Of a stretch of DNA of 64,000 nt, positions 10,766 through 64,000 are shown one piece after another. This DNA is from Octopus vulgaris (Eukaryota). The position numbers and the translations under genes were made by a program. The stretch lies in the NCBI GenBank assembly GCA_951406725.2, contig OX597832.1, positions 67,394,001-67,458,000 of the forward strand. The letters are read 5' to 3'. Each line of letters begins with the position of its first letter. Position 1 is the first letter of the stretch. The notes below the pieces were generated by a model that was not told the origin of the DNA, made no database searches, and saw only the letters and a list, made by a program, of their open reading frames with translations.

Positions 10766-11157
10766 ATTCAGATGGCTAGTACACTTTACGTTGTCGAGCG
10801 GTTACTGTTTACATCTCGTTCGGAGATTTATTAATGCTTTCAGACAGTTTTTCTAAATCAGTGACAGTGGCTGCTGGGAAAAACATTAAATAGATATTCG
10901 CAAACAGGTCTCTCCAATCGAAAATCGGTGATTACCGTACGTTGACGAGAGGCAAATACCTCGAAACTATAGTCCGTATGTATCACTTAGGTTTTCGAAT
11001 ATCCCTTTGCGAATATCAGAAGGGTAACGAAAGTGTGTCTAAAGCCAGCTGGAGATGATGATCTCCTGGGGCTATAAGCTTCAGTAACACCCACTCCCAG
11101 TGGCTAACCACATTCAGATGGCTAGTACACTTTACGTTATTCTCGTTCGGAGATTAA
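10766..11157 (+). mobile_element. Retrozyme-like unit: 346-bp monomer with terminal direct repeat and one hammerhead
   Basis: attcagatggctagtacactttacgtt repeats at 10766 and 11112. Contains the hammerhead at 10936-10980. Homologous to the reverse complement of the 47447-48248 unit. Confidence 0.75.
10936..10980 (+). ncRNA. Minimal type-I hammerhead ribozyme (U3 core variant)
   Basis: cgtacg-TTGACGA-gagg[caaata]cctc-GAA-actatagt-C-cgtatg: stems I and II pair, stem III is palindromic, cleavage triplet GUC at 10972-10974. Confidence 0.8.
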
Positions 11158-11483
11158 TTATATACTGTTTGTTCTTATATTTATGATGGTAGAAAAATTA
11201 TCAATCAGTATTGATCGAAATGTCAGACAAGGAGGAGTTTCCATTTTCAAGAGGAATTCCCAAAGAGAGTTGCTAAGTTGAATATCAGGAAGATGTTCTG
11301 TAAATTGCACATCAAAGCACCTGCCGCATTATTCGATAGATCGGGCACTACACATACAAGAGTTTAAAGTTCCTACACGCATTAACAATAATGTTTGCTT
11401 GAAGCTCTTTATCGGGCGTGGGCGCTCCATGTACTTTTAGATTTTCAATCACGACAGACTAAGGAGAGTGTTATAGCACTAAG

Positions 11484-20835: not shown

Positions 20836-21974
20836 CTATGTTTGACTTTTGCTTTATATCTGTACAAGCTGGCTCCAAGTCTCACCCAGAGAGCTCAAGA
20901 GACAACAGGTTGGAAGTTCACGTTGTTGTTATGCTTAAAGTGCCATATATTTGGGTTTCTTTTTTGGTGTTGTACTAGTGAATGTCTAATACATAAATTT
21001 AAAAAAAAGTTTGTTTTAAACTTTGGGATTACATAGAGAGAATTTTGCGTAGGATATGAGCAGTTCCCATGAGCACTATCTTTTGAATTTCTGCCATTTT
21101 GGGGTTTCCTGGTATCTGAGTTAGGTAGCAATCAGCCCCTTTCGCTATCATTCTCAGGGCACCTATGGTATTGTTTTAGTCTTCAGGTTCCACATTTTGC
21201 TGATTTCTGTTTCAAGATCTTTATATTTGCTCAGTTTTTGGTAGGTCTTGGCAGATACGTTCATATCGATTGGGACAGTCATATCAATGAGGAGGCATGT
21301 TCTTTGTCTGAAGTCTTTCAATATGATGTCTGGCCTATTTGCATCTATCTTTCTGTCAGTTTGAATGGTGAAGTTCCAGAGGAGTGAGATGTGGTCATTT
21401 TCAAGCACTAGAGGTGGTTTGAGTTCCCACCAGATTTTTTCATGGGGCAAATCCAGGTTTTTGCAAATTACCCAGTGAATATATTGTGCAGCTCTATCAT
21501 GCCTGTTGAGGTACTCTGTAGGCGCTAGAAGACTGCATTTGGAGACAACATGAACAATGGTTTCATTTTGTTGTCGGCATACACGACATGTTGGGCTACT
21601 GCCGTTCTTTAATATGTTGGCCTGGTAGTTTCTTGTTGGTAGGCATTGATCTTGAGCTGCTATGATAAACCCTTCTGTTTCAGATTTTAAGCCAGAGGCC
21701 ATTAGCCTTTGATGGGTCAGGGCTTTGTCAATATCTGCATTATTCGCTCTCTTTGGGTATTTGCCATAGAGAGGTTTTTCTTGCCATTTATTATTCAGAA
21801 TATCTAAGGCCGCAGTTTTGGCACGGGTTTTCAGGAGCCTAGCTTTTTCTGTGCTTATTTCTTGTATGTCTATCTCTAATTCCCGAAATTTGTTGTATTC
21901 GGAAGTCACTTAGATATTCCTTTGCCTGTTTTGTTGCTGAGTATGATGCTTTCTTGTTTTCATGTTTTGAGACA
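20833..21974 (-). mobile_element. 5'-truncated R4/Dong element (zinc finger + RLE + 3' UTR) inserted in (AAT)n
   Basis: ORF 21163-21909 has WQEKPLYGKY, AAQDQCLPTRNY, CRVCRQQNETIVHVVSKC, RHD, NRPDIILKD, LIDMTVP and KLSKYKDL. (AAT)n on both sides. Confidence 0.9.
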
Positions 21975-30046: not shown

Positions 30047-33000
30047 CTATCTCGCATTTGTGAGGGACCTTTTATTCGCCACATTCTTCCACCTTTCATC
30101 GAACACTTTCTTACTCAGGCTCCTCCTCTCCAGTTCTATTTGTCTTTTCAGGTGGAATTTAAAGTATTCCACCAGACTAGAACCGGAGATGAAGTCGCCT
30201 GTTAGCATCCCTTTCACCCGCGTCTTCCATACTGCCTGTTTCGCAATTGAAACCACAGAGAGAAAACAATTCTTACCTTCTTTCGTTAAGAAATCAGGTG
30301 GGCTGATTTTCACAATGGATTCGGCTGATAGCTGTACTCTTCCTCCACTTGACATCAGTTGTTCGGCATAAACCCACATGTCTGTCACCTCCGGGCACCG
30401 CACGATCGCGTGCGAGACGGTTTCCCTGTCTCGCCCACATCTCGCGCAGGTCGGGCAGACTGGGGCACCATGCCTTGCAAGTTTATCCCGAACAGGTAAG
30501 GCTCCTCGGTAACACTGCCAAGCCAAAGACTTCTGGGAATTATCCAGTGCCTTCGGCCCGAATGTACGTTGGAACAGACTGGCCAGCTGATTATCGTCGA
30601 AACCTAGGGTTTCCCCTAGCGTATCATCGTTACCGGCCTCTACAAAACCTCTATAAAACACAGCGGTAGAACCACTGCCGCAGGCATTGCCCGAGCGACG
30701 GAATAGTCGGAGTGCCTTGCGGCACTCCGTGTACCATGTACCCAACTTCGATCTACGATTATACCAGTCTTCCCGTCCACCGAAACTGGTGAACCTGGGA
30801 AACATCTGCTTCGCCAGCGGAGACCACACCCGTTCACCATCCAGATGGAGCCACAGGTGTCTTAGCCTCAGCGCATTTCTGCGCATCATTAGCCACGGCA
30901 TCCCTAGTCCACCCTGTAACGGTTTTTGACAACAAATAGAGCGTTTCACAAGTGGTTTCGAGCCCTTCCACAAAAAGTGAAAGAGCTGTCTCTCCAACTT
31001 GTTCAACCACGAATCCGGGCAAGGCACGACGGCAAGGCGGTAGGTGATCACCGATGCGATAAACACATTGGCTACCTCCGCCCTACCTTTCAGGGATAAC
31101 CACCGCCAAGACCAGGTCTTGACTACTGCGGTCACCCTGCTCGATACCTCGCTCCAGTTCTTCTCTATTTGGAGGCCTGGTCCAAACCAGACCCCGAGCA
31201 ACTTAATCGGGCCCTCCGTCCAACGTCCCACGACGCTGTCTGGAGGCATCGACTTGCCTCTCCAGGTGCCGAGTTGCAAGCCGACTGACTTTTCACGATT
31301 AACCTTTGCTCCTGTCACCGTCTCGTAAACCTCTATGGCCTTGCCTACTTTACGTAGGAGGTCCATTTCGGTCACGATGATAGTGATGTCATCCGCGTAC
31401 GCCGAAACCGACATTCCACGACCTGGCTGCCTCGGGATGCCACTCAGTTTTCGCAGCAGCGGCTCGAGAGCCACTACATACAAAAGCGGGGAGAGCGGAC
31501 ATCCCTGACGGAACAAGCGTTTGACCTTGAACGGCTTAGAAATAAAGCCGTTCACCCGAACTACCGAGTCGACGTTGTCATACAATTCTATGATCCACCT
31601 GAGGAAGCCAAGACCCAGGCCGAACTGAGCCAGGACGGACACCAGGTAACGATGGTCGACCCTATCGAAAGTTTTTGACTGGTCTAAATGGACCACTGCC
31701 TCTCCCTTGCCGGCATCGTTATCCATTCCCTCTATCGTGTATCTAATTAGATGGAGATTATCCTGAATGGTTCTGCCCGGTACGGCGCACGTTTGCGCTT
31801 TCCCGATCAGTCCATTCGCGACAGGCGCCAATCTGATCGATAACACTTTGGCCAAAATCTTCAACTCTGCGTTAAGCAGAGTGATGGGCCTGAAATTATC
31901 AATGACGTCCCCCTTGCTCTGGTCCTTCCTGACTAGTGTCACCACTCCCCGGTTCACAGATCTGGGTATGAACCCATTCTGCTGCCAGTTCGCGTAGACG
32001 TTCGCCAGTAAGTCCCCGAACAAGTCCGGCATACTTTTAAAGAGCTCGTAGGGCAGACCATCCAGCCCCGGCGCCTTACCCGCACCGCAGTCTGCCATGG
32101 CCTCTATTACCTCCTCAGGCGTGATCGGCTTCTCACTACACTCCGCGTCCTGCCCCGAGAGCCGCGGCAGTCCGTCAAGGAGGTCCGTAAGGTCCCTCCT
32201 CTCATCCGGCCCGCCGCCACCCCCAAAGAGCTGGGCGAAGTGGTCCTGAAAAGCTTGACACATCTCCTCGGGCTCGTCTGTCAACTTACCTTGTTGGTTC
32301 GTCAGAGATCGAATTGTGGCATCGTTGCCACGTTGGGCTTCCACCACTCGGGCCCATCTCGCGGCATTAATTCCTTCGCTCCCCATTGTACGTTGTCTAG
32401 CTCTGACAATGCAACCCATGTGTTTGGCTTCGAGGTGCTGGTTTAAAACCAGTCTCTTGGCCTTCACCTGAGCCGCGTTGCCAGTTCGCATTGCTTCCTC
32501 TAGGTCCTTAACTAGAGTAGTTTCTTTTCTAGCCTCTCTAGCTACGAGATCTATACTATATCTAATGGACTCATATCTTATGGCTCGCTTGAGGGCATAC
32601 CACCATTTGTTATTGATAATGGAGCCGGTCATGGCCCTCTGGATCATTAACCTAATCCTGTCACTGTACTCCTTAATCGCCAAAAGGGACGTATTAAGTT
32701 TCCAGTAACCAGGACCTCTATTTATCTTATCTACGTCTAGCTTACAGGTGACCATCTTGTGGTCACTGTAGCTGACTATGTGGAGCTGTGGACTCTTAAC
32801 TAGGTTTCTATCTACCTTCCTAATTAAAATCCTGTCTATGTATGACCTTGACGATCCGTCGCTGTTTGTCCATGTCCACAATGGAGCGTCCGGATGTTCC
32901 AGTCTATATGGATCTACCAGCTCAAAACGTCTTAGTAGATCCAGGAAGCAAGCATTTCCTTTCCTGTCTGTTTGCGAGCCTACACAGTCTACCCGCACAT

Positions 33001-33439
33001 TGCAGATTGTGTTGTAGTCTCCTAACATTACTAAAGGGCACGATGTACTGAGAAACTTCTCCAGGTTCCGAAAATACTCACTATTCCCTTTATTATTGGG
33101 GGCGTAAACCGCAACCAGTCTGATTGTCTTACGACTGCTGAACGTCAAATCAACGACGACCAGCCTACCTTCTGGATTTGCAAAAATCAACTTTTTCCCA
33201 GAAACCCGGTTCTTTTTCACCAGGACAAACACCCCACTTCCGCCGACCGACGGGTTCGGAGAGATAATTCTCTCGTAACCGTCGAACAGCGGGAGCAGAT
33301 CTCTTGGCCCTTTTAACCGGGTTTCTGTGGCAACATCAACATCTAAATCCCGTGACCTGATGTCATTTAGGAAGCGCCCTTGCTTCCGGCTCGCCATCAG
33401 GCCACGCACATTTACGCATCCTACACAAATACGAGACAT
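30047..33439 (-). CDS. ORF2 polyprotein: APE endonuclease + reverse transcriptase + C-terminal zinc finger (1130 aa)
   Basis: APE motifs NVRGL, ATETRL, VYAPN, LGDYN, IDRIL, SDH. L1/Tx1 linker GPGYWKLNTSLL. RT motifs APGLDGL, RPITLLN, DQSKTFDRVDH, RQGCPLSP, YADD. Zinc finger CARC...ETVSHAIVRC. No stops. Confidence 0.96.
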   Translation of the reverse strand: MSRICVGCVNVRGLMASRKQGRFLNDIRSRDLDVDVATETRLKGPRDLLPLFDGYERIISPNPSVGGSGVFVLVKKNRVSGKKLIFANPEGRLVVVDLTFSSRKTIRLVAVYAPNNKGNSEYFRNLEKFLSTSCPLVMLGDYNTICNVRVDCVGSQTDRKGNACFLDLLRRFELVDPYRLEHPDAPLWTWTNSDGSSRSYIDRILIRKVDRNLVKSPQLHIVSYSDHKMVTCKLDVDKINRGPGYWKLNTSLLAIKEYSDRIRLMIQRAMTGSIINNKWWYALKRAIRYESIRYSIDLVAREARKETTLVKDLEEAMRTGNAAQVKAKRLVLNQHLEAKHMGCIVRARQRTMGSEGINAARWARVVEAQRGNDATIRSLTNQQGKLTDEPEEMCQAFQDHFAQLFGGGGGPDERRDLTDLLDGLPRLSGQDAECSEKPITPEEVIEAMADCGAGKAPGLDGLPYELFKSMPDLFGDLLANVYANWQQNGFIPRSVNRGVVTLVRKDQSKGDVIDNFRPITLLNAELKILAKVLSIRLAPVANGLIGKAQTCAVPGRTIQDNLHLIRYTIEGMDNDAGKGEAVVHLDQSKTFDRVDHRYLVSVLAQFGLGLGFLRWIIELYDNVDSVVRVNGFISKPFKVKRLFRQGCPLSPLLYVVALEPLLRKLSGIPRQPGRGMSVSAYADDITIIVTEMDLLRKVGKAIEVYETVTGAKVNREKSVGLQLGTWRGKSMPPDSVVGRWTEGPIKLLGVWFGPGLQIEKNWSEVSSRVTAVVKTWSWRWLSLKGRAEVANVFIASVITYRLAVVPCPDSWLNKLERQLFHFLWKGSKPLVKRSICCQKPLQGGLGMPWLMMRRNALRLRHLWLHLDGERVWSPLAKQMFPRFTSFGGREDWYNRRSKLGTWYTECRKALRLFRRSGNACGSGSTAVFYRGFVEAGNDDTLGETLGFDDNQLASLFQRTFGPKALDNSQKSLAWQCYRGALPVRDKLARHGAPVCPTCARCGRDRETVSHAIVRCPEVTDMWVYAEQLMSSGGRVQLSAESIVKISPPDFLTKEGKNCFLSVVSIAKQAVWKTRVKGMLTGDFISGSSLVEYFKFHLKRQIELERRSLSKKVFDERWKNVANKRSLTNAR

Positions 33440-33600
33440 TTACTTACCTTTATGTCGGTGTCCCTGTTGGTCGGGGGGGTGAAGTCCGCTTTAATAAGTG
33501 ACTCGTGTACATCGAGCCGCGGACCCCTTATGTCCCCTGAATACTGCGCATTTAAAATATTAAAGTTTAGCAAATCCATTTTGTATATTTCTACATTTTT

Positions 33601-34992
33601 TTAAAATTTTCTGTGCGTTTGTATTTTTTCAGCGGTTGGGATGTTTCCCATCCCGCTGCTTAAACTGTCGTTGTCTTTGTTGATGGCTGCATAAACTACT
33701 TGGAACTCCGTGATTTTCTTTTGGGGGCTTTGTGGGGGTGATGGGGAGAAGGGGGAGGAGGAGTTTGGGGAGGAGCACGGGGAGGTCATTTGGAGGGGAG
33801 GGTAATGTATGGTACTGTGGGGTGGGGGTGATTCGTGTTGGTCTGGGGGGGTCTTATCTTTTTTTTCCTTTTGTGGAGAACCGTGTTTGGGTGGGGTGGG
33901 TTTCCCCCCCTGGGTGTTACTCTTTTTTGTATTATGGTTGGGTATATTTACGTCCGTACTTTTTCTTTTTTTCATTTTTCTGGGTTTCACGAAATCGTCA
34001 TCCCCCTCTTGTTTCTTTCCTTCTTCTGTTTCCGTCGTTTTCTTCCTCCTCTCCTCTTCTTCAGCTTTTTTCCTTGCTTCTTCTTCTTCTTTCTTGCGGG
34101 TGGGGCATTCTGCTCGGATGTGGCCCTTTTCTCCACACCCGTAGCATCTGGGCTTACGCCCTTCGACCACCACCCGCAAGTTTATTTCGTCGTCGAAATT
34201 AATGAATTCAGGCACCTCCTCTAACGTTTCCGGCGCCGCTTGCACTATTATTTGTAGTGCTTGTCCCTTCCAATTCTCCTTCTGGGTTCTGACGATGTCT
34301 ATAATGTTGATTTTTTCTTTCAGTCCCATAAATAGGGCTGGAATGAGGCTTTCTACCTCAATTTCTGGTAGTATGTCGTCTATTTTGATTTTTATTGTTC
34401 TTCTTCCCATATACGAGGGGAGAAGAATTATATCTGTTGATTTTAGAGGGTTGATCGAGTGTTTCCTCGCCTGTTCCTCCTCTTTAAAGTAAACCATTAT
34501 GGTTGCATACTTCTTACCCCATGTAACGAAATCAATGTCTGTCCATATTGGTTTGAGACACTTTTCAGCCTGCTCCTTTGTTATTTTTTCTATTTTTCTT
34601 TCCTTAATTACAAAAGATTTAAAAATTACCGCTTTCTTCATGGTGCTGGTTTTTATTTCTTGTGGGAGGGTGGCTTTTATGTTGTTCCCCTCCCTTTTGT
34701 ACCTGTCCTTGTATTTGTCGTAATCAATGTCCTCTGGTAAAATATGTTCGGTTTTTCTGCCGGCTGCGGCTGCGAAGTTAACCGTTTTTTTCACGTTTTC
34801 AACTGCTGGTACACTTGTTTTCGAATTTTCTGCTTTCATCATATTTTTTTCCTGTGTAGGTGAACCTACAATATTTTTTTCCTCCTTTGTAGGTGAACCT
34901 ACAATATTTTTTTCCTTTGTAGGTGAACCTACAATATTTTCTTTTTTTGAAGGTGAACCTTCATTGGCAAAATGTTCAACTGTTTTTTCCAT
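33601..34992 (-). CDS. ORF1 Gag-like nucleic-acid-binding protein with CCHC zinc knuckle
   Basis: CYGCGEKGHIRAEC knuckle; lies directly upstream of ORF2; ATG at 34992. The frame stays open past the TAA to 33421. Confidence 0.88.
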   Translation of the reverse strand: MEKTVEHFANEGSPSKKENIVGSPTKEKNIVGSPTKEEKNIVGSPTQEKNMMKAENSKTSVPAVENVKKTVNFAAAAGRKTEHILPEDIDYDKYKDRYKREGNNIKATLPQEIKTSTMKKAVIFKSFVIKERKIEKITKEQAEKCLKPIWTDIDFVTWGKKYATIMVYFKEEEQARKHSINPLKSTDIILLPSYMGRRTIKIKIDDILPEIEVESLIPALFMGLKEKINIIDIVRTQKENWKGQALQIIVQAAPETLEEVPEFINFDDEINLRVVVEGRKPRCYGCGEKGHIRAECPTRKKEEEEARKKAEEEERRKKTTETEEGKKQEGDDDFVKPRKMKKRKSTDVNIPNHNTKKSNTQGGKPTPPKHGSPQKEKKDKTPPDQHESPPPHSTIHYPPLQMTSPCSSPNSSSPFSPSPPQSPQKKITEFQVVYAAINKDNDSLSSGMGNIPTAEKIQTHRKF

Positions 34993-35217
34993 TTTCACAC
35001 AAATGGATTTTTTTTTTGTTAGATTGTGTCAAAACACACAATATATTTCACACTATTTCCCCTCCTTAAAGGAGGGGAATAACAAAATTTTCCTGGTTCA
35101 AAAACCAGTTAAAGTTCAGTATAACAATTTAACAAACAATTTTTAAACAAACAATTTCAACACAATTTTAACAATATTTTAGCTCACGTGAAAAAACACC
35201 ACCGACTCCTTCAAAAA

Positions 35218-36977
35218 TTCTTTGCCGAATTTCTGATTTTTTATTACCCACTAAGGGGCGACACAGAGGGGGACAGCAAAAGACATGGGGACATAGAACA
35301 TTATAATTAAACTTTATGAACATGAATTGTTAAACGAAAAAAATGATAAAATGAAAGCGATACCAACGGCCCCGTCCGTCAGCATCACTTACTTGTCCTT
35401 TGTTTTTCATAGTCACTTGAATGTTCTTTGCCAATACGAATAAATTCCATATCCATTCTTACTCCGAAATACTCATCCATATTTTCCACGAATTCATCGC
35501 TCATTCTTATATCTTTCACCTCCCAATTCTCCCTTTCACACCTCCCCATAAACTCACCTATGTTCTTCTTTTCAATCACAGCATACCTAGTCTCTCCAAC
35601 ATCATACCATTTATACTCTTCCATTAGACTTTTAACTTCTTTCTGTTCAGTCATAGTACAAATGTACGGCCTGGGTTCGCTTTCAATCTCTTGTGTGTGT
35701 GTATTCTTTTTTTCTTTTGTTTTCTTGTTGGGGGGAGCGGGTGGGCTCAATGTCTGCATGGATAGGGTGGGACTCAGAGGGTGTGGGTGGTTTTGGGGTA
35801 GATTGGAGTTCCATATTATTTTCTTTTCCACGTATTCTTCTCCTCCTCTTACTTCCAGCTTCCTTCCATTTCTGTGTATTCTCTTCCTCTGTTTCCTTCT
35901 CCTCTGGTTTCTGCTTCTCTCTCTCTGGTTCGGAATCCATTTCTTTCCCTGGGGGAGGGCAGAAGGCTCTTATGTGACCCCTCAGGCCACACTTGTAACA
36001 ACGTGGAGCCCTGCCCTCCACCCACACTCTCATGATCACGTCTCCCAGTCTGATGCTTTCCGTCAGGTCCACCAGTACCTCGGTCTCTGCCTGTACGTTC
36101 AGCTCCACTGTTACGCCTCTCCAGCCCTCGGACTTAACCGAGGCATGGAGAATATCCACCTCGTCCTCGTGGCCGCTGATCACAGCCGCCACAATCCATT
36201 CTGCCTCCACGTTTGGTGGCACTCCCTCCACCCTTATTCGTGTAATCCTCCTGTTTAAATACGTAGGTAATAGGGTTACCTTTTCTGACTTCACCGCCTT
36301 CGCCGCCATCTTCCTCGCTGCAGACTCAGTTTTGAAATGCACAACTACGGTACCGTACTTGGATCCTCGAGTCAGAAAATTTATTTCCTCCTCAGTTCTT
36401 CGCAGGGCTTCCTCTATCCATTCCATGGTTACAACTTCTACCCTCTTCCTTTCGTTTGCGAACACCCTGTAAATAATCGTCCTCTTATCATACCATTCTT
36501 TTCTCCTGGGTGTCGGTGATAGTTCCACCTCACCGCTTTCCTTTTTCATGTATTTCTGGTAACTTGCCAACTTGGCCATGTCGACCCTTTTCTCTTCCGC
36601 CTTCTTGGTTACACCGGCATAGGTATAACCCAGCTCATCTTCCAAATTCCTTGCTGCCATTTCTAGCTCCTTCTCAGACGTAGGCAGGTCTGATAAAGAC
36701 TCGAAAACTCCAGCCCTTTCTTCCATCAGCTCCATTGCAATTGCCCGTTCCAGTTCCTCATCTGTCGTGGACAAGTCTGTTAGAGACTCATAGTCCATTT
36801 CCTTTCTGTCTGACAGACCGAAAACGGCCGCCAAAACAGAAAAAGTGTAACGCGCTGAACGAGCGATACGCGAAACCGCGTCAACGCCGTTCAGAATTTC
36901 CACAACAACAACAACGCTTTTTGTTCTTTTTTACCGAATTTTACGAGCGTAAAAAAACACGACCGACTCCTTCAAAA
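35218..36977 (-). mobile_element. Non-autonomous ORF1-only Tx1-related element (HAL1-like), unit 1, 1760 bp
   Basis: Near-identical to 36978-38745. Encodes an ORF1 homologue, has no EN/RT, and shares terminal sequences with the autonomous element. Confidence 0.85.
35385..36798 (-). CDS. ORF1-like CCHC protein of unit 1 (main frame 36798-35683; C-terminal part in a second frame to 35385)
   Basis: CYKCGLRGHIRAFC knuckle. RGSKYGTVVVHF / LLPTYLNRR / VWVEGRAPRC align with WGKKYATIMVYF / LLPSYMGRR / VVVEGRKPRC of the autonomous ORF1. Confidence 0.8.
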
Positions 36978-38745
36978 TTCTTTGCCGAATTTCTGATTTG
37001 ATTTTTTATTACCCACTAAGGGGCGACACAGAGGGGGACAACAAAAGACATGGGGACATAGAACATTATAATTAAACTTTATGAACATGTATTGTTAAAC
37101 GAAAAAAAATGATAAAATAAAAGCGATACCAACGGCCCCGTCCGTCAGCATCACTTACCTGTCCTTTGTTTTTCATAGTCACTTGAATGTTCTTTGCCAA
37201 TACGAATAAATTCCATATCCATTCTTACTCCGAAATACTCATTCATATTTTCCACGAATTCATCGCTCATTCTTATATCTTTCACCTCCCAATTCTCCCT
37301 TTCACACCTCCCCATAAACTCACCTATGTTCTTCTTTTCAATCACAGCATACCTAGTCTCTCCAACATCATACCATTTATACTCTTCCATTAGACTTTTA
37401 ACTTGCCTCTGTTCAGTCATAGTACAAATGTACGGCCTGGGTTCGATTTCAATCTCTTGTGTGTGTGTATTCTTTTTTTTTCTTTTGTTTTCTTGTTGGG
37501 GGGGAGCGGGTGGGTTCAATGTCTGCATGGATAGGGTGGGACTCAGAGGGTGTGGGTGGTTTTGGGGTAGATTGGAGTTCCATATTATTTTCTTTTCCAC
37601 GAATTCTTCTCTTCCTCTTACTTCCAGCTTCCTTCCATTTCTGTGTATTCTCTTCCTCTGTTTCCTTCTCCTCTGGTTTCTGCTTCTCTCTCTCTGGTTC
37701 GGAATCCGTTTCTTTCCCTGGGGGAGGACAGAAGGCTCTTATGTGACCCCTCAGGCCACACTTGTAACAACGTGGAGCCCTGCCCTCCACCCACACTCTC
37801 ATGATCACGTCTCCCAGTCTGATGCTTTCCGTCAGGTCCACCAGTACCTCGGTCTCTGCCTGTACGTTCAGCTCCACTGTTACGCCTCTCCAGCCCTCGG
37901 ACTTAACCGAGGCATGGAGAATATCCACCTCGTCCTCGTGGCCGCTGATCACAGCCGCCACAATCCATTCTGCCTCCACGTTTGGTGGCACTCCCTCCAC
38001 CCTTATTCGTGTAATCCTCCTGTTTAAATACGTAGGTAATAGGGTTACCTTTTCTGACTTCACCGCCTTCGCCGCCATCTTCCTCGCTGCAGACTCAGTT
38101 TTGAAATGCACAACTACGGTACCGTACTTGGATCCTCGAGTCAGAAAATTTATTTCCTCCTCAGTTCTTCGCAGGGCTTCCTCTATCCATTCCATGGTTA
38201 CAACTTCTACCCTCTTCCTTTCGTTTGCGAACACCCTGTAAATAATCGTCCTCTTATCATACCATTCTTTTCTCCTGGGTGTCGGTGATAGTTCCACCTC
38301 ACCGCTTTCCTTTTTCATGTATTTCTGGTAACTTGCCAACTTGGCCATGTCGACCCCTTTCTCTTCCGCCTTCTTGGTTACACCGGCATAGGTATAACCC
38401 AGCTTCTCTTCCAAATTCCTTGCTGCCATTTCTAGCTCCTTCTCAGACGTAGGCAGGTCTGATAAAGACTCGAAAACTCCAGCCTTTTCTTCCATCAGCT
38501 TCATTGCAATTGCCTGTTCCAGTTCCTCATCTGTCGTGGACAAGTCTGTTAGAGACTCATAGTCCATTTCCTTCTGTCTGACAGACCGTAAACGGCCGCC
38601 AAAACAGAAAAAGTGTAACGCGCTGAACGAGCGAAACGCGAAACCGCGTCAACGCCGTTCAGAATTTCCACAACAACAACAACGCTTTTTGTTCTTTTTT
38701 ACCGAATTTTACGAGCGTAAAAAAACACGACCGACTCCTTCAAAA
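36978..38745 (-). mobile_element. Non-autonomous ORF1-only Tx1-related element, unit 2, 1768 bp
   Basis: Tandem duplicate of unit 1 with scattered substitutions and homopolymer indels. Confidence 0.85.
37151..38567 (-). CDS. ORF1-like CCHC protein of unit 2 (main frame 38567-37449; C-terminal part in a second frame to 37151)
   Basis: 372-aa ORF nearly identical to unit 1, overlapped by a 149-aa downstream frame. Confidence 0.8.
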
Positions 38746-39474: not shown

Positions 39475-39668
39475 TGTGATATATATGTATATATATAAAG
39501 TGATGACTTTTTACCAGCATAATGTAGCAATCCCAGGATGGGATAAATATTATTGTTACTTAACGCCAAGAAAAATGGTTTCTAGCTGGGTATAGGACAC
39601 AAAAGCTCTGTGTCCATTATGTTTTCGAACAGGGGAGACTAGCACCTCCACCCAGCACAACCTACCAT

Positions 39669-39709
39669 CCACGGACTAGTTTTAGGGTTATTGCACATTA
39701 TCAGCGGGG
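39669..39709 (-). ncRNA. Degenerate type-I hammerhead-like motif
   Basis: Reverse complement: ccccg-CTGATAA-tgtgcaataaccct-AAA-actagt-C-cgtgg. Palindromic stem III and GUC are kept; core and stem II are mutated. Confidence 0.4.
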
Positions 39710-40207
39710 AGTAGTTTGGCTTTCTAGATGTCGCAGCAAATTTGCTGTCTAATATATATAGAATTCAGAGTGACAAACTATATACGTACATATTTACATG
39801 CACACCTTTGCATAAACTGACGTCCACAAATACTTGCATGTGTGTGTATCATGAGTGTTTGTGTGTGCATATGTTTCTAGACTGTGTGTGCAGTATCTCA
39901 TTTATATTCGATATGTATTTATTCATTTCTGTGAAACTCGCTGAGCTCCGTCCAATTGTAAGTTATACGGACTGATACTACTATGTACTACAATGTACAG
40001 CCGATGCACACACAGATTTACACATTCTCACACAAAGCCTCACTTACAAATTCATACACGTATGTATATACATATAAGAAATTCGAAAAAACCGAGACAA
40101 TGACGTGTTGAAAATTGACTGAAGTGAAAAGTAGAACTCGAGAAAAAAATTACATAAAAATATAACTGACACACGATTAAACAGATATATAAATATATGC
40201 GTGTATG

Positions 40208-46835: not shown

Positions 46836-47661
46836 CTCCCTCTCTCTCTCACTCTGAGTCTCCCTATATATATTACATATATATATATATATGAGGTAAC
46901 TTCTTTCCATTGTTCAGGTGGCTTGCACACCTCAATGTCAACTGTAATTTAACCTTGAACATCTCGAACTCAATTAACTGTTCATTAATATTTCAATCAC
47001 TTTCTGGAGAAAGCAAACACAAAACATCTCAAATTAAATCAATCGTACGTAAATAGACACACACGCTCACAGCCACACGCGCATGCGTGAATGCATTCTC
47101 ACATACACACATAGACGCATATTAGATATTTTGGTTTCTCCCAGTCAATCATCTGAATTCATTTCTGAAATACATTCATAGTCTTTCATTGGTAATGCAT
47201 TTCTTTGCATATATAAATGTGAAATATTTCCGGTCAACTTCATTTTGGAGCTCGAAGTAAGGTATAGGATAATGCTGAAGCATTCAACTTCAAGTCCATC
47301 GTGCCTTATAGGAGAAACAACTGTAAACTAATGCAGCTCATATTACGTTTGTTTTGCTATTGTAATTGTTTGTAAACACGCCCACACATACATGCATTAC
47401 ATGCAAAAACACACGCACACTCATATATATATATGTGTTTATATATAGCAATAATAATTCTCTAAATGAGATATAGACAGTGACTGCTCCATAATATAAG
47501 GGATATTAGCCAACTGAATATGGCTAGGGACAGGGCAGGGTGGTGGGGGTGTCACTGTTGCATTTAGCCCCAGGCGAACATCAACGTCACCAGATAGGCC
47601 GACGCCATCACGGCGTCCTCTATCTTGCAAAGGGAGATCATTCACCAACAAGCGGATACAA

Positions 47662-47707
47662 CACACGGACCTAGGTTTCAAGGTGTATTGCCTATTATCA
47701 ACGTGTG
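47662..47707 (-). ncRNA. Minimal type-I hammerhead, U3-A8 core variant (unit 1)
   Basis: Reverse complement: cacacg-TTGATAA-t-agg[caataca]cct-t-GAA-acctaggt-C-cgtgtg. Confidence 0.72.
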
Positions 47708-48017
47708 GTAGGCATCGCTTCTCGATGAACGACCAACAGTGCAAGATATATATAAGGATTTTCAAGTAAATACATTTACTGATTTCGAAAATCCGTTCGA
47801 CAGCAATAATAATTCTCTAAATGAGATATAGACAGTGACTGCTCCATAATATAAGGGATATTAGCCAACTGAATATGGCTAGGGACAGGGCAGGGTGGTG
47901 GGGGGTGTCACTGTTGCATTTAGCCCCAGGCGAACATCAACGTCACCAGATAGGCCGACGCCATCACGGCGTCCTCTATCTTGCAAAGGGAGATCATTCA
48001 CCAACAAGCGGATACCA

Positions 48018-48063
48018 CACACGGACCTAGGTTTCAAGGTGTATTGCCTATTATCAACGTGTG
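48018..48063 (-). ncRNA. Minimal type-I hammerhead, U3-A8 core variant (unit 2)
   Basis: Identical motif to 47662-47707; stem I can be extended (tacca/tggta). Confidence 0.72.
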
Positions 48064-48290
48064 GTAGGCATCGCTTCTCGATGAACGACCAACAGTGCAA
48101 GATATATATAAGGATTTTCAAGTAAATACAATTACTGATTTCAAAAATCCGTTCGACAGCAATAATAATTTTCTAAATGAGATATAGACAGTGACTGCTC
48201 CATAATATAAGGGATATTAGCCAACTGAAAATGGCTAGGGACAGGGCATATATTTATAAATACACACACACTCATATATATATATATATA

Positions 48291-53231: not shown

Positions 53232-55351
53232 TATATATTCAACCACGTGCTTTCACACACCAACTTTCTCACCTATATATAAAACACGTGAGACCGAAAA
53301 TGCCGCAGAAGACTAATACCTCGGATAAAACTACAAATGAAGACATACTTAAAGAACTTAAAAGTATTAATGCACAACTCATTACCTTAAATAACAAAAT
53401 CGAGGACTCAAATCTACTCGCCCGGGAAAGGAAAAACAGTGAAGACACAACTCGCTACACTGACTAGGTTAGTAATGATTTACAACTGTTATACACAACA
53501 CTAAATTCAATTTTCATTAACAAATCCGACAATAAACAACACACACCAAATGAAACACACCAGGACATACGCACTCAAATCAACCCAACAAAAAGAAAAA
53601 TAGGAAACATTTGGAATACAAACCTGCACAATAGAAAACTCGCCTTCTGGAACATGATAAAAGATTCCAACAAAGCAGATATATACGAGGGATGGATGAA
53701 CGCAACTTCAATTATCCTCCCACGCAAATTCCAGATAAAAATAATACCCAACGAACCTGACGGACAGAGAACTATTAGGGAATGGTCAGCTCTATCCAAT
53801 TTAAAATCAGAAATAGAACTACTAAAACTTAGGGCCTCCACAAATGAGAAAAAATATAAAAGCATCGACGAGGAGATGCACAATGAAATACAAAAACAAA
53901 CAGAGGGACAACCCCTCGAAAATACACTAAATCGTTGGAAGGAAACCTAGGAAAAAAGCAACGATTTCTTCCAAAGATATGCGTCAATTTTCAAAAATGA
54001 ATTGGGTACAGATAATCCCTTTCTTAAGAAAATTACAAAAAATAAAAAATAAAACCGAACAACCCACAAACCACCCCCAACTATCCTCCATACACTAGAA
54101 ACAGAATTCACCCACAACCAACATTTTCGAACCACGCAAGACTTAACAGGAAACAAGCTGACAGACAATGCGTCTATGAAATAGATTACACCAAAAACAG
54201 AACACACCAACAATATCCTAATACCAGACCCAACCACCACATAACAGCACAAAGCAACACCAGAATAAGAAATACACCACACACAAGTCGCTACTACCCC
54301 ATGAACCAAAATTACTGGTCCCCACCGAACACAAGACAAACGCAAAAAAACACTAAGTCAAGCAACATCCCACATACAAGCAATTCGAAACAAAAATATT
54401 TCACATACAGACATTTTACACACACCACAAACGAAAACAACCATAGATTCCCACACACACACAACAATCGGAGGCAACAATACCACCGTTCCCCCGATCC
54501 AATATCACACAACCTCACAGACAACTCATACAAACAAAATTACACCCAACATTTTTTAGCCCGGGACCAGAGACACCAGGACACAGGCTGGAACCTAGTA
54601 ATAAGGAAAAACCGAAGATAATCAACCTTTCAACCAAACCTCACTCTAACATAAAAATTGACATCCTCTCAAAAGGGCTCAAATTTACGCCAACTCCACG
54701 CAGAGCCAACCTAAATGAAATCAAGGATAATATAACAGAATTCTGCTGAAAATTAAGACTAGCAGAAGCATCAACCAGTTTCAATACTGAAGATGAATTA
54801 CTAGTCAAGAACAAAAGTGAACACATCCCCCACAAAGGAAGAAATAAAGATCTTGACGAATTCTGCAGCCACATTGAGAACTTTCCCTACCATGCTATAC
54901 ATAAACAGACAGTTAACTCATATTTTAACACTACACAGTGGAAGGAACTGATATAAGTTCAAAATGAAGATATAACCATTAAGGAAGCAGACAAAGGAAG
55001 TGCAGTTGTAATAATGGATACATCATACTATAGAAATCTTGTAATTTCCTTGCTTGATGACAATCAACATTATGAAAAAATCACCAACTACACTCCGCAA
55101 AAAATAATGAAAACTATCTTCACTAATTAAAACCCATGAAAAGGAACTAACAACCAAAGAGATTGACTTTCTAACAAACTTTAAAGGCAAGCCTCTTCTA
55201 TGGACTGCCAAAAATACATAAAAGCCAAATTATAAATGAAACCATTAAAAAATCACCAAAGACATACATACACACACCTAACTCGGGGGACCTAAAACTA
55301 CGACCCATTGTAGCTGGCCCAACCTGTGAAACACACATATTAAGTCTATTT

Positions 55352-55957
55352 ATGGACATCCTCCTGAAACCCTTCCTTAAACATATCGATAGCCATATCA
55401 CAGATGACTTGGATATGTTAAACCGCCTTCCAAAAAAAGTCAAGGAAGAAATAATCATGGTTTCATTTGATGTAGTTAATTTATATACCAGTATAGCTCA
55501 TAATTATGGATTAGAGGCAATACAGTTCTGGCTGGACCAATTTCCGGCAGAAATACCAAAAATGATCAGTAAAGAATTCATTACTAAATCGGTTGAATTC
55601 ATCCTACATAATAACCACTTCATGTTTGACAATACATTTTACTGTCAACAATCCGGAATTGCTATGAGTACAAGGGCAGCACCAGTCATTGCGAACCTAA
55701 CAATGGGCTACCTGGAAATAATTGTTTACCAGGAATCTTCATCAACCTTTGGAAACCCCCTCTCTCAATACATAAAAGAGAATTGGAAACGATTCCTGGA
55801 CGATTGTTTTATACTCTGGAATGAAAACACAGATAAACTCCTAAAATTCAAAAACCTATTGAACGGCATCAACCCAAATATACAGTTCACAACGGAATAC
55901 AACCAAAAGGAGCTTCCATTCTTAAATATACTAATTAAAAAATTAACCTTAAAATAG
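55352..55957 (+). pseudogene. PLE reverse-transcriptase core fragment
   Basis: SFDVVNLYT, SGIAMSTRAAPVIANL, WKRFLDDCF. Confidence 0.88.
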
Positions 55958-56394
55958 AAACATACATTTTTTTACAACGCCACAGACTCCAAACAATACC
56001 TACTATTTGATTCATGCCACCCAAGACACACTAAAACAGACATCCCTTTCAACCTTGCAAGAAGGATATGCACAATAGTGTCAGAACTAAATACCAGAAA
56101 CTTTAGACTACAAGAACTCAAAAACACCCTAATTGACAGACACTACCCAGCTCAACTCATAGAGGATGGGATCAGACGTGCAACAGAATTCAACACAACA
56201 ACACACCTTCCCCGAAAATACTGCCTTACATATCCACATACAACCCCATAAACAAAGAAGCCTTCACCATCATCACCCACAATTTACCAATACTTCATAA
56301 GGACCCCAAATTAAAGGAATTTCTAAACATACATAAAATCATTAAAAGCTACAAACAACCTAAATCACTTAAAAAGATTCTCACAAAGGCAAAA

Positions 56395-56856
56395 TTGCTT
56401 TCTGAAATTACGGTTGCAAAAGTAAAAAAATGTGGTAGACCAAATTGCGCAACATGCCCAAAACTTCTAGCAGGATCAGAATTCTTCTTCAAAGAGGGAC
56501 AAAAATTCAAGAGCAAATCTAATTTTACTTGTGCTTCTGAAAACATAATTTATGTCATAAGATGCTCGGGCTGCCACCAAAACTACGTGGGGTTCACGGG
56601 ACTATCACTCAGATGTAGATGCACACTGCATCGACAACAGATTGCATTCCTAGAATATAGAATGATACCCTTTAGTGAGCATATTGAGAAATGCGCAAAG
56701 CAACTACTACCACAATTTTTAATCTTTCCATTTTATCAATGTGCTATTGGAACACCAACACAAATTAGACTAAACAAGGAAACATTCTTCATTGAAAAAT
56801 ATAAGCCCAAACTTAACCACTCTAACATTCTTACACAGAGAAACTCACCCCATTAA
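56395..56856 (+). pseudogene. PLE GIY-YIG endonuclease fragment
   Basis: CGRPNCATC...FTCASENIIYVIRCSGCHQNYVGFTG...RCTLH...KETFFIEKYKPKLN. Confidence 0.88.
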
Positions 56857-57132
56857 GTAAAAGAGGCAACAAATATAAAGCGATTATCTCCCTTACACCG
56901 GAAGAAATCACTTATTACCTCCCCTTACCTGGAACACTTCTTTACACTTCATAACGAAATCATAACACGATGTTTTGAGAAATTTGAAAAGTTAACATGA
57001 AGCCGGTAATTTCTTCAAAAACTATGTCACTGTATGAAATAAATTTTATAATATTCTTCAGACATAATGGCTCAAATATATTTTTTAACCTTTTAAAACA
57101 AGCCATCTGTAGTTTTTTCACTTTTTACTATT

Positions 57133-57187
<55 letters not shown>

Positions 57188-57935: not shown

Positions 57936-60900
57936 TTAAGAACGATAAAACAGAGCTCCGAAGTCTAGCCACAAACATCGAAAACAAGGACATCGTATGG
58001 AGCCAAAGATTTACTAACAAAGGATTGGACTGTATCCGAGTAAGTAATACTCATTGAAATTTATTACTATTTTCGAAACGAAATGATGTATTTTGACTCG
58101 ATATCATCTCCACCTCTAACAAAACACATGTAAACATGCTTGATACATTACGATCCATCAACACCAGATCATCCCCGACCCCAAACACCATGTACAAAGG
58201 AACTACGAAGAAATTATATACCACCGATGTTATTCAACCCAAGAATAACAATCGGGAGGTACGGACTTTAAACTTACAGCACGAAATGTACGAAAAACTA
58301 CACGTGCAAAAAATGTGACAACAGAAATGAACGGACCGGTACCCTACGAAAATGACGACCGTCAAAATAATGGGCCGGACATTGTTCCTCATGTCCCGCA
58401 AATAAAACCCAAAAGACATAAATAGACACGTGAGGAATACATTTCTATCCTACACGCATACTTCACAGCAGTGCTCTACCCCAAAAAATGAAAACACAAC
58501 ACATACATATAAAATATGGAAGGAAAATAGCATAAATATAGACTTGGATACAGCAATGAACCCTAATAAACTAGCTAACGTACGAAGAAACATTCTCAAC
58601 GCAAAACAAATAGAAATAGAAATAAAACATCTAAAAGAAAAATTACAGCAGGAAAATGTAGATAGAAGCCACACAACAATGCCCAATAATATACACACTG
58701 AAACAGTAAATCACGAAGACAAACGTAACATTCCCAGCAAACACGATGTAAACAAAAACACCAAACCTAGCCAGTAAGGATGCATAATAATACACGACAA
58801 ACAGCAAGCCAAAACACGGCAAACAAACATATAAATAAGAAAGAAAGCGACACAAACCTAAGACCTGGAAACAACGAAGGGGAGCCTAATGATTATGATA
58901 ATATAAAAAGTAAAATAATCAAAGAACTGAAAACCACAGAGCTCAAAATGGACCACCGACCATACCTCCCAAAAATCAAAATAGACGAAACAACACCAAT
59001 TATAAACAGCATAAACCTAGCCGTCACGGAACTAATAGCCACTGAAACAAAAAGCGATATCACTGAGCTAAATAACTTAGTGCCACTGCAGCCACAAAAG
59101 AAGCTGGATACTCACTCAAACCCATCCAAACAGGAGTACCACCACCCAAACAAACCCTGTGGATAAATAACATCCAAAACGAAATACAAAAAATGAGAAA
59201 AGATCTGTCGATTCTTAATGAAATCAGTAGACAATCAACGCTACTGAGCAACAAAAAGAAAACAAAAATACTCCGCAAATATAACATCACAGAAAAAGAT
59301 TTACCCGAGATAAAATAAAAGCTGAAGCAAGATGTCCTTGCCAAAGCACAAAGGACCCGCCGGTACGAGAAACGCCAGCGCTTCTTTGAACAAAACAAAA
59401 GTTCAACTCCAACCCCAAAAAGTTCTATCAAGAACTTGGCAAAAATAAGATAGAAATTACTGCAGCACCAACGGCAGAAGAAGTGGAAGAATTCTGGATA
59501 GAAATATGGTCAGCGAATGAACAACCAAAAAAAAGGAGTATTAAAACAACAAACTCAGCATCTGAGCAACTTTGGACCCCCATAACGACTGAAGAGGTCA
59601 CCCAGGCACTGAAAAGACTAAGCAACTGGAAGGCACCTGGGCATGACAAGATCCCCAACTTCTGGTTGAAATATCTAACAGGAATGCATAAAAAGCTGGC
59701 TGAAAACTTTAACAACATACTAGCAGAGCAAAAGACAATAGCTGAATGGCTCACGAAGGGGAAAAACCATCTTAATTCCCAAATCAAATGAGACAGCAAA
59801 ACCAGAAAACTACAGACCAATAACCTGTCTCCCAACAATGTACAAGGCATTTACTGCAGTGATATCGCAAAGGTTGAACAAGCACCTGGACGAAAACAAC
59901 TTGTTTCCAGAAGAGCAGAAAGGATGCCGCAAAGGCTAATATAGTTGTAAAGATCAACTAATGATTAATAAAGCCATAACTGAAGACAGCCACAGAAAGA
60001 AGAAAGGCCTCAGTATTGCCTGGATCGACTACAGAAAGGCGTTTGATAGCATCCCCCACACATGGATCCTCGAAACACTAGCCATTAACAAAGTAGCACC
60101 AACAATTATAAAATTCATAGAGCACTCTATGAATAAATGGCAAACAGTGATACAGCTCCAAATAAAAGAGAGACTCGTGAAAACCAAAGCCATCCCCATT
60201 AGAAGAGGAATATTCCAGGGAGACACGCTCTCTCCATTCCTTTTCTGCTTGGCACTGTCACCTCTATCTGATATGCTAAATAGAACTGGATGCGGATATA
60301 AATGTTACGGCAAAACGATCAGCCACCTTTTATATATGGATGACCTAAAACTATACGCTGCAAATGACAAACAGCTGGAAACACTATTAAAGGCAGTTCA
60401 TGGATTTACCAAAGAAAGAGATATGAAATTTGGATTTAAAAAGTGCGCCAAAGTAACCCTGAAAAGAGGAAAACTAGTTAAGAGTAGCAACATCACAGTA
60501 GATAAAACCAATGAAATAAAAGAACTAGACCAAAGCCAAACTTACAAATACTTAGGAATCCATGAACTAGATAAGACACAACACACACAAATGAAAGAGA
60601 AAATAAAAAAGAATATTATAGACGAGTTAGATCAATACTAAAAACAGAGCTCAATGCTAAAAACAAGATAATAGTTATTAACACTTTAGCTGTCCCAGTT
60701 ATAAGTTACAGCTACAATATCCTTAACTGGACACTGAATGAACTGACCAAAATAGATAGGAAAACAAGAAAAATAATGACAGGATCTAGGTTGCATCACC
60801 CAAAATCTGACATAGAAAGGCTATATATACAATGTATAGATGGTGGTAGAGGCCTTATACAGCTGGAAAACTACTATAAAATAACCACCATAGGACTGCA

Positions 60901-61997
60901 AAAATATCTACTTCAGAAGGAAGGAAAACTGATACAAATAGCGGCAAAACACGAGCAAAACAAAAAACTGTTCTCAGTATTTAAGGAAGCTGACAAATAC
61001 AAACAAGAAATCATACCACCTAATAAATATGAAGAAGAAGAAGAAGAAGAAGAAGAAGAAGAAGAAACAACAAAAGCTATAAAACAACTGAAATCCAAAC
61101 AAAAAATAAAACAGCGACGAACCATGATAAAACGATGGCAAGAAAAGCCCGTGCGTGGTAAATACTGGACTAAACTTAACGCAAAATAAATAGACAAAGA
61201 AAAATCCCAGCAATGGTTGAGAAGCTCAGGACTCAAAGCAGAGACAGAGGGATTTTTAATTGCAGCACAAGACCAAAGCCTCCCTACCAGAAATTACAAA
61301 AAAAATATGTAATGAAAAGAAATATAACAAGTAACTGCAGAATATGTGGAGATGGACAAGAAACAATAAATCATATTATCTCTGGCTGCCCAGTCCTGGC
61401 TAAGAAGGAATATATTCACAGACATGACAGAGTTGGAACCTACATACACTGGAAGCTATGCCAACATTATGGAATAACAACAGAAAAAAGATGGTATAGG
61501 CGCACACCAGAAAAGGTCACAGAAAACGAGAAAGCAACCATACTCTGGGATATGCCGATACACACAGATAGAGAAATTAAGGCCAACAGACCAGATATAG
61601 TTGTCAGAGATCATGAAGAAAAAAAATGGTTTCTAATTGATGTATCAATACCGGCAGATGACAAAGTGTCTCTGAAAGGAATGGAGAAACTTTCAAAATA
61701 CAATGACCTGGAAATAGAGGTAACCAGAATGCGGAATCTAAAAAGAGAAACAATTCCTATCATAGTAGGTGCATTAGGCATGATAAAAAATATTCAGACA
61801 AATACATAACAAAAACACCAGGACTTACAAACACATATAACATACAGAAAATTGCACTACTAGGCACTGCACACATCCTACGCAGAACACCTTCCATACA
61901 ATAACCATCAGAGCATCACAACAAATCACAGCACATACCTAAGGCACACAGAGCTGCGCTCGGTTGTGAAGTGAAAGCACGCTATAAAATAAAACTA

Positions 61998-63399: not shown

Positions 63400-64000
63400 T
63401 CCAGCAAAGGACTATCCACTTCACTGAAAACAAAATCAGAAATATGAGTAAAAAGATAAGCAATTGGGAAACATCAGGACCTGATGGTCATCGTTCCCAT
63501 ATCTAGCCTTACGGGATTGACACTGACTCGAGTTTCTTGGTGTTTACCCGTCCACAGCGTGTGTTAATCACCAGTTAGTGATGATAACTCACTTCACTCA
63601 CAAAATACTATATGCTTTTTCCAGCGACGTACCGTCGCTGATCTCGAAAAAGGAGAAATAAGCTATATTAAATCTCTGATCGTGATATAAACAGTAGCAC
63701 TACGGAACCGTAACATATATTTTCCAATCAAGTGTAGCGTCCTATACAGGACAGTGCTACTGACGTTTATAACCCCATGAGGACATCTCTTAACGGCTAA
63801 CATTCTGTGTCCTTTTTCTAGATAAAGACCAATGCCTCAGAGAAATCGAGGGAAATGACAAGATTAGCACTTGGAGATGGCTAAAAAATAGGGATCTGAA
63901 AGGATTCACTGGGGCATTGATAGGCAACACCCAGGAACAAGTTCTGAGAACTAATTACACCAAGTTCCAAATAGATAAGTGTAGAATGAGTGGCAGTAGA
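63400..64000 (+). mobile_element. Degenerate R4/Dong-like fragments
   Basis: SNWETSGPDG (cf. NWKAPGPDG) near 63460; TWRWLKNRDLKGFTGALIGNTQEQVLRTNY near 63870-63960. Confidence 0.6.

Follow-up and report, generated by a model that had tools for sequence, protein, structure and literature searches.

The insertion at 10766–11160 and its hammerhead

The window, a 64,000-nt stretch of the Octopus vulgaris genome, carries at positions 10766–11160 on the plus strand a single-armed retrozyme insertion of what we term family A. This copy comprises about 1.1 units of a dispersed, non-coding repeat of about 350 bp: a full unit (10766–11111), then unit positions 1–27, and then a remnant of unit positions 49–68 (unit positions, u, are counted from window position 10766). 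The first 27 bp (10766–10792), which mark the point of 5′ truncation, recur exactly at 11112–11138 with a spacing of 346, and the longest comparable repeat in 200 shuffles of the region was 11 bp. The 3′ copy of this redundancy stops exactly at the first of two fixed 3′ ends of the repeat (fixed end 1), which we infer to be reverse-transcription (RT) start site 1. Between the two fixed ends (u27 and about u73) lies a ‘tail’ of about 46 nt (10793–10838, plus strand), which contains one arm of a covarying helix (10801–10807) and a conserved hairpin (10813–10827); the GTTACTG of the tail pairs with CAGTAAC at 11082–11088 on the same strand, a pairing with double changes in the rows of families B and C described below. 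Downstream of 11138, about 20 nt of the unit are absent, the gap beginning at end 1, and a 20-bp tail remnant (11141–11160, plus strand) that reaches fixed end 2 is 95% identical, with one mismatch, to 10814–10833 (u49–68). The 11138/11141 junction occurs only once in the genome, and the remnant may have arisen when synthesis jumped from site 2 to site 1, or through a deletion afterwards. Short TA runs flank the copy; no target duplication is resolvable and a second arm is absent.

Compared with the commonest letters of nine other family A rows, the copy has a private 9-nt deletion near u233 and 19 substitutions. The 346-bp period of the original prediction is exact for this copy and is not the family length, which was 352–357 bp in all 11 other units measured; 346 reflects the private deletion. 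Likewise, the direct repeat proposed for both ends is exact over 27 bp, but its 3′ side is not simple, with about 20 nt missing before the 20-bp piece at 11141–11160. The 10766 copy is an ordinary old insertion; its family is new, the kind of element known.

At 10928–10986 on the plus strand, the unit contains a type I hammerhead with a UUGACGA core (U3·G8), a palindromic stem III (ACUAUAGU) and a predicted cut after 10974. Stem I pairs CGTACG (10936–10941) with CGTATG (10975–10980) over 6 bp and is extended by a distal 5-bp stem (10928–10932/10982–10986); the core, TTGACGA at 10942–10948, has U in place of C3; and stem II (GAGG/CCTC, with G10.1–C11.1) is followed by GAA, the palindrome ACTATAGT (10966–10973) and the GUC site. 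Every part on which the original prediction relied (the stems, G10.1–C11.1, palindromic stem III, the GUC site and the C3-to-U change) is where it had been placed. The description ‘well-formed’ applies to the presence of these parts, but U3·G8 is a wobble in a core tertiary pair and activity is predicted only. The whole unit folds at −107 kcal/mol (z −4.4), and none of 100 shuffles folded as well. In predicted folds, the hammerhead of a monomer lies 5.8 kcal/mol above the monomer minimum, and the double hammerhead is the predicted cofold minimum (−38.6 versus 2 × −17.4 kcal/mol); the dimeric (double) form is that expected of metazoan type I hammerheads in the account of PMC4209133. The longest stop-free frame of a doubled unit is 54 codons, which indicates that the repeat is non-coding. 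An Rfam scan of the 64-kb window, hammerhead unit included, gave no match at the gathering threshold.

Related families and covariation of the hammerhead

We searched the genome (2.8 Gb in 227 contigs) with each family, counting first-look candidates, scoring 40 of them and taking the best-scoring 30 loci. Genome-wide, there were 2971 first-look candidates for family A, 1286 for family B and 1672 for family C, and copies are short dispersed insertions on nearly all large contigs. Two of the relatives lie in the window, both on the minus strand: a young family B insertion of 2.26 units (356-bp unit) at 47447–48248, with a U3–A8 core, U·U at the base of stem II and its 3′ end at fixed end 2, and an older, decayed family C copy at 63427–63791, with a hammerhead at 63509–63575 (family core C3–G8, stem III ACUCGAGU). 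A fourth relative, family E, is very young (95–100% identity). Units are 346–357 bp long and arranged head to tail, inside the 150–450-bp range of metazoan non-LTR retrozymes, and tandem passes extend up to about three units in the arms sampled. Passes of one insertion differ from each other at 286 of 6253 columns in family A and at 130 of 9709 in family B, and family C copies are about 85% alike, from which we derive the age order C, A, then B and E. Although family E (L224, L231, L235, L238, L245) is among the youngest lineages, its stem III is 7 nt long and non-palindromic (ACCUGGU).

The 47447 array is, as had been proposed, a diverged homologue of the 10766 unit, matching it at 70% over 220 bp (E 5e-18) and, with whole units aligned, at 219 of 340 columns. 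Besides U3, its hammerhead has a G8-to-A change and U·U in place of G10.1–C11.1. The ‘different circular permutation’ attributed to it did not hold up: read on its own minus strand, the array starts only about 19 nt upstream of the start of the 10766 copy in unit phase and ends at u73, the same fixed-end region as the tail piece of the 10766 copy (u68).

Further elements were noted in the window. A decayed hammerhead at 39658–39720 (minus strand; model hit E 9e-5) belongs to another dispersed family with 850 candidates, the relatives of which combine C3 with A8 in the core (CUGAUAA or CCGAUAA) and have a stem III palindrome of 6 nt. At 30047–38648 on the minus strand, an open frame of 1130 aa shows endonuclease and RT motifs (L1/Tx1-like by eye); three ORF1-like frames with zinc knuckles come before it, and two of these form a tandem duplication. 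Fragments of a non-LTR element with RT and restriction-like endonuclease motifs (by eye) lie at 21163–21909 (minus strand) and 59940–61809 (plus strand).

Selection on structure had been suggested from stems that differ in sequence between loci but keep their pairing, and covariation across copies agrees with this. In an alignment of 27 hand-picked hammerhead rows (11 A, 6 B and 10 C), 93.6% of cells are paired and 9 of 15 pairs have double changes, a level reached by none of 500 shuffles in a control that ignores relatedness; the double changes represent few lineage events. The 3–8 pair covaries as well, being CG in 10 rows, UA in 9 and UG in 8. Pair 10.1–11.1 is non-standard in 14 of the 27 rows (family B has U·U and family C mostly C·A). 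Over whole units, double changes affect 20 of 54 predicted pairs, and a covarying 7-bp helix (u36–42/u317–323) encloses the C/A-rich stretch that contains site 1.

An exact pattern search for the family A core gave 169 matches; among the 100 matches listed, in which states were counted by eye, C3 was absent, 49 had G8 (48 of them with ACUAUAGU) and 51 had A8 (46 with ACUGCAGU). The palindromic stem III is kept in 97 of these 100 cores, in two alternative spellings. Because 49 of the 100 listed cores have G8, the U·G pair is a lineage trait and not a product of decay in the 10766 copy. The U3·G8 lineage and its U3–A8 sister are about 90% alike. In a tree of 24 units for which family C serves as the outgroup, the G8 rows lie at the base as an open fork, from which two A8 groups branch off; this is compatible with, and falls short of proving, the direction C3–G8 to U3·G8 to U3–A8. 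What is new is a whole mobile lineage with a U3·G8 wobble that stands between C3–G8 and U3–A8 lineages.

Insertion footprint, template RNA and mobilisation

Statistics on ends come from 47 distinct family A and 37 distinct family B insertions at top-scoring loci; the B queries ended at site 2, which favours arms reaching that site. Outer 3′ ends fall at u19–31 or u64–84 in 132 of 139 cases (A 68/74, B 64/65), with peaks mostly at u27 or u29 and at u73–74, two points about 45 nt apart, and 5′ ends are scattered along the unit. In 27 A and 28 B insertions, two arms are joined 5′ to 5′; one arm ends at each site in 48 of these 55 (A 21/27, B 27/28), the other 7 have one odd end, and the same site was never used twice. 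Loci found with short queries follow the one-end-of-each rule in 10 of 13 and 7 of 8 cases, the remainder having one odd end, and families C and E have the same two 3′ ends. Clear target duplications of 12–13 bp were present at 9 of 85 insertions inspected, most others lying in TA runs, and by eye a TA run adjoins at least one side of 24 of 26 family B insertions. A separate cluster of 5′ ends in family B (10 of 69 arms) coincides with a conserved hairpin at u243–255, possibly an RT pause site.

The ends of the repeat are thus tail-type and not LTR-type. Insertions of Penelope-like elements (PLEs), as described in PMC8557442, have 5′ truncation, an inverted 5′ copy, a 30–40-bp tail at one end and microsatellite targets, and work on a PLE protein in PMC11167929 defines the tail as the interval between two internal RT start sites, with both strands extended. 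Two fixed 3′ ends, varying 5′ ends and inverted arms therefore correspond to the PLE footprint of tail and 5′ truncation set out in these two sources. The permuted ends that the original prediction read as fitting a circular or multimeric RNA are rejected: 3′ ends are fixed at two sites (in 132 of 139), and only 5′ ends vary.

The predicted cut site lies at u209/210, and arms run through it. Only 0 of 76 family A and 3 of 69 family B 5′ ends lie within 5 nt of the cut, and queries wholly downstream of it gave 0 of 21 and 2 of 21. Since the cut site shows no accumulation of 5′ ends, we reject a linear self-cleaved monomer as the main template. Rare variants common to all passes of one insertion were found at 17 of 6253 (A) and 16 of 9709 (B) multiply covered columns, and 8 (A) and 12 (B) span opposite arms; because all passes share them, opposite arms included, both arms come from one source. 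A-to-I editing as the origin of template variants is not specifically supported: A>G (10) and T>C (8) changes are symmetric, and together they make up 18 of 39 rare shared variants, versus 61 of 374 single-pass variants. The template RNA was likely continuous across the cleavage site, for which a circle or a homogeneous uncleaved multimer fits, with the balance tilted slightly towards a circle. Reverse transcription of a circular or multimeric RNA, as originally proposed, stands in so far as the template was longer than a linear monomer, but a length greater than one unit fits a circle and an uncleaved tandem equally. The family B repeat is absent from runs recorded as RNA and is covered in pieces by contigs of four runs guessed to be RNA.

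Coding PLEs with RT and GIY-YIG domains are abundant in the genome (20971 endonuclease candidates). The window holds one near-full-length, broken element at 53236–57135 on the plus strand, with RT, a CxxC-type linker and, at its C terminus, a GIY-YIG domain, which appears Neptune- or Nematis-like by the domain criteria given in PMC8557442. It carries a minimal U3–A8 hammerhead-like motif (UUGAAAA ... GAAG CCGG UA) at about 56982; its family has two 3′ ends 42–46 nt apart (used by 14 and 11 of 27 loci listed, with 2 other), and open frames of more than 800 aa occur among its relatives. This element (53.2–57.1 kb) was discarded as the parent of the unit, with which it has no common sequence, and is a candidate helper only by its tail length (42–46 nt), TA targets and minimal U3–A8 hammerhead. 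A second coding family (L093–L111), found beside locus L048, has its own minimal U3–A8 hammerhead-like motif with U·U at the stem II base and a tail of about 25 nt; it too was dismissed as parent, having no homology to the unit and a shorter tail. Comparison of the unit with the 3′ ends of these two sampled families (49 loci) detected no common sequence, and the parent PLE may be among families outside the two. Lünse et al. are said to have reported dimeric PLE hammerhead variants.

We consider it probable that the 10766 copy is an old, 5′-truncated metazoan non-LTR retrozyme, likely pasted in by a PLE RT and endonuclease that copied from one of two fixed points of an RNA likely continuous across the predicted cleavage site. 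This reading builds on observed features: copies are dispersed, with fixed 3′ but scattered 5′ ends; arms lie back to back; TA targets and target duplications occur; and the hammerhead covaries. Under the mechanism that we propose, tandem loci would be transcribed, and pairs of hammerheads would fold through the palindromic stem III into double hammerheads and release monomers by cleavage; circles of about 355 nt would form when a host ligase joins the ends of these monomers. A PLE protein dimer would nick both strands of an A/T-rich target, 12–13 bp apart, and one cDNA would be primed at each nick, one starting at site 1 and the other at site 2 of the same RNA source. The cDNAs would end at random, and the 10766 copy would have kept one arm of about 1.1–1.2 units.

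PLE-driven spread could also do without a circle: a tandem transcript would serve as template without being cleaved, and the U3·G8 hammerhead would be weak, or transposition would not need it. We take this seriously as a minority possibility, since in vitro the Anolis PLE protein inserted without hammerhead cleavage and had uncleaved RNA as its main substrate (PMC11167929), the arms sampled reach at most about three units, shared rare variants are explained by a homogeneous array no less well than by a circle, and the wobble-core lineage made about half of the listed exact A cores (49/100). It sits less easily with the preservation of the stems, the stem III palindrome and the 3–8 pair through double changes, which points to selection on the ribozyme fold, and with the accumulation of coral, mussel and axolotl retrozymes as circles described in PMC7229834; its source arrays would, moreover, need near-identical internal units. 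The original prediction had itself allowed that the unit might be only a detached pseudo-LTR (pLTR) of a coding PLE. Such an origin, with the unit left as 5′-truncated and tandem fragments, was tested in part and seems to us improbable, even though every hallmark of PLE insertion is present, Xenopus retrozymes are homologous to pLTRs (bioRxiv 10.64898/2026.07.22.740005) and the 49 coding loci sampled are among tens of thousands. The unit closes on itself head to tail over up to about three units, and of 29 free 5′ flanks of retrozyme arms none matches a 655-aa PLE protein or, close to the junction, any other flank; neither of the two sampled PLE families adjoins a retrozyme locus, and hammerheads are minimal in coding PLEs but canonical in the repeat. 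A single locus among the 40 scored (L187:2250–2485; G000:C11, about 51.231 Mb) fuses a PLE 3′ UTR to a very young family E arm. We rejected its reading as a template-switch chimera, because the fusion has no counterpart and still contains the 32 innermost nucleotides of an inverted arm; two neighbouring insertions later joined by a deletion explain it more simply. Spread at the DNA level as a satellite or minisatellite by recombination, with the hammerhead as a relic, is very improbable: tandem units do exist, and bioRxiv 10.64898/2026.07.22.740005 discusses how satellites may grow from them, but dispersed short insertions, fixed 3′ ends, inverted arms and target duplications are not made by unequal crossing over.

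Within the preferred reading of PLE-mobilised retrozymes, a bolder version is speculative and, in our view, doubtful. Successive mobile lineages may preserve a full compensatory walk of the catalytic tertiary 3–8 pair (C3–G8 to U3·G8 to U3–A8), with the U3–A8 step taken at least twice and the 10766 copy in the wobble state, and each two-armed insertion may be the trace of a PLE RT dimer that copied one small RNA circle from two set starts. If so, the wobble lineage would be a natural experiment on whether retrozyme spread needs cleavage and circles.

Relation to known systems

Judged at the level of DNA, the repeat falls within the definition of metazoan non-LTR retrozymes, known members of which include elements of 350–390 bp in mussel and 330/350 bp in axolotl (Cervera and de la Pena 2020, PMC7229834). 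As described there, they are non-coding repeats of 150–450 bp with one canonical type I hammerhead per unit, and the octopus repeat also shares with them a stem III that is weak, palindromic and suited to dimers, along with large target duplications and co-existing PLEs, which PMC7229834 names as the likely mobiliser. The 12–13-bp duplications found here fit the more than 4 bp expected of metazoan retrozymes when duplications are present, and the U·U at the stem II base of family B is as in the axolotl HHR_Amex2 of PMC7229834. The octopus elements differ in their U3·G8 (10766 lineage) or U3–A8 core and, in the loci sampled, in occurring mostly as short dispersed one- or two-armed insertions and not as the long arrays of that account. 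Fixed ends and inverted arms of the kind seen here are not described for retrozymes in the accessible portion of PMC7229834; circles are known for its retrozymes and are a prediction for the octopus repeat. Plant LTR retrozymes differ in having type III hammerheads in LTRs and 4-bp duplications, as opposed to the type I topology and 12–13-bp duplications here. A literature search that covered few subscription papers and no supplements found no paper on cephalopod retrozymes; families from molluscs or cephalopods may be listed in the supplements to PMC7229834 and the 2026 preprint.

Both the mobilising enzyme of animal retrozymes and the circle as transposition intermediate have the status of proposals in PMC7229834 and in the 2026 preprint of Li, Clavereau and Pollet (bioRxiv 10.64898/2026.07.22.740005), which argues for PLE mobilisation from co-occurrence and pLTR homology in vertebrates. 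Dispersed monomers and proposed PLE mobilisation are common to the elements of that preprint, the non-autonomous Chlamys elements of PMC8557442 and the octopus repeat. Here, by comparison, support comes from the insertion footprint, and no homologous pLTR was found among the two PLE families sampled. In the same preprint, eight of nine predicted Xenopus retrozyme dimers showed no cleavage in vitro and one cleaved.

Of the core variants, the U3–A8 covariation and U10.1–U11.1 are known natural variants, active or tolerated (Perreault et al. 2011, PMC3088659; Cervera and de la Pena 2014, PMC4209133), and a UUGACGA core is cited in PMC7151607 for one saltern hammerhead that also carries a 2-nt insertion. 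Compared with these reported cases, U3·G8 here characterises an entire lineage that has expanded and has sisters in both Watson–Crick states. The search, with its few subscription papers, found no paper on the activity of a plain U3·G8 core. By comparing the U3·G8 lineage with its U3–A8 sister, one could test directly how active the ribozyme of a spreading retrozyme must be.

A mechanistic parallel is offered by PAc, a Poseidon element from Anolis (Frangieh et al. 2024, PMC11167929). As reported for PAc, two internal RT starts define a tail, targets are A/T-rich, both strands are extended, and a start lies in an A/C-rich stem–loop downstream of the hammerhead, of which the covarying helix around site 1 is reminiscent. 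PAc differs in coding for its protein and in having a tail of 30–40 nt inside the ORF, whereas the octopus tail spans 44–47 nt in a non-coding unit, its two ends lying 164 and 210 nt after the cut site. The value of the octopus elements is in the family, with its insertion rule and wobble lineage, and not in the single copy: the rule of one site per arm gives exact start coordinates, which makes PLE mobilisation testable in the existing in vitro PLE system.
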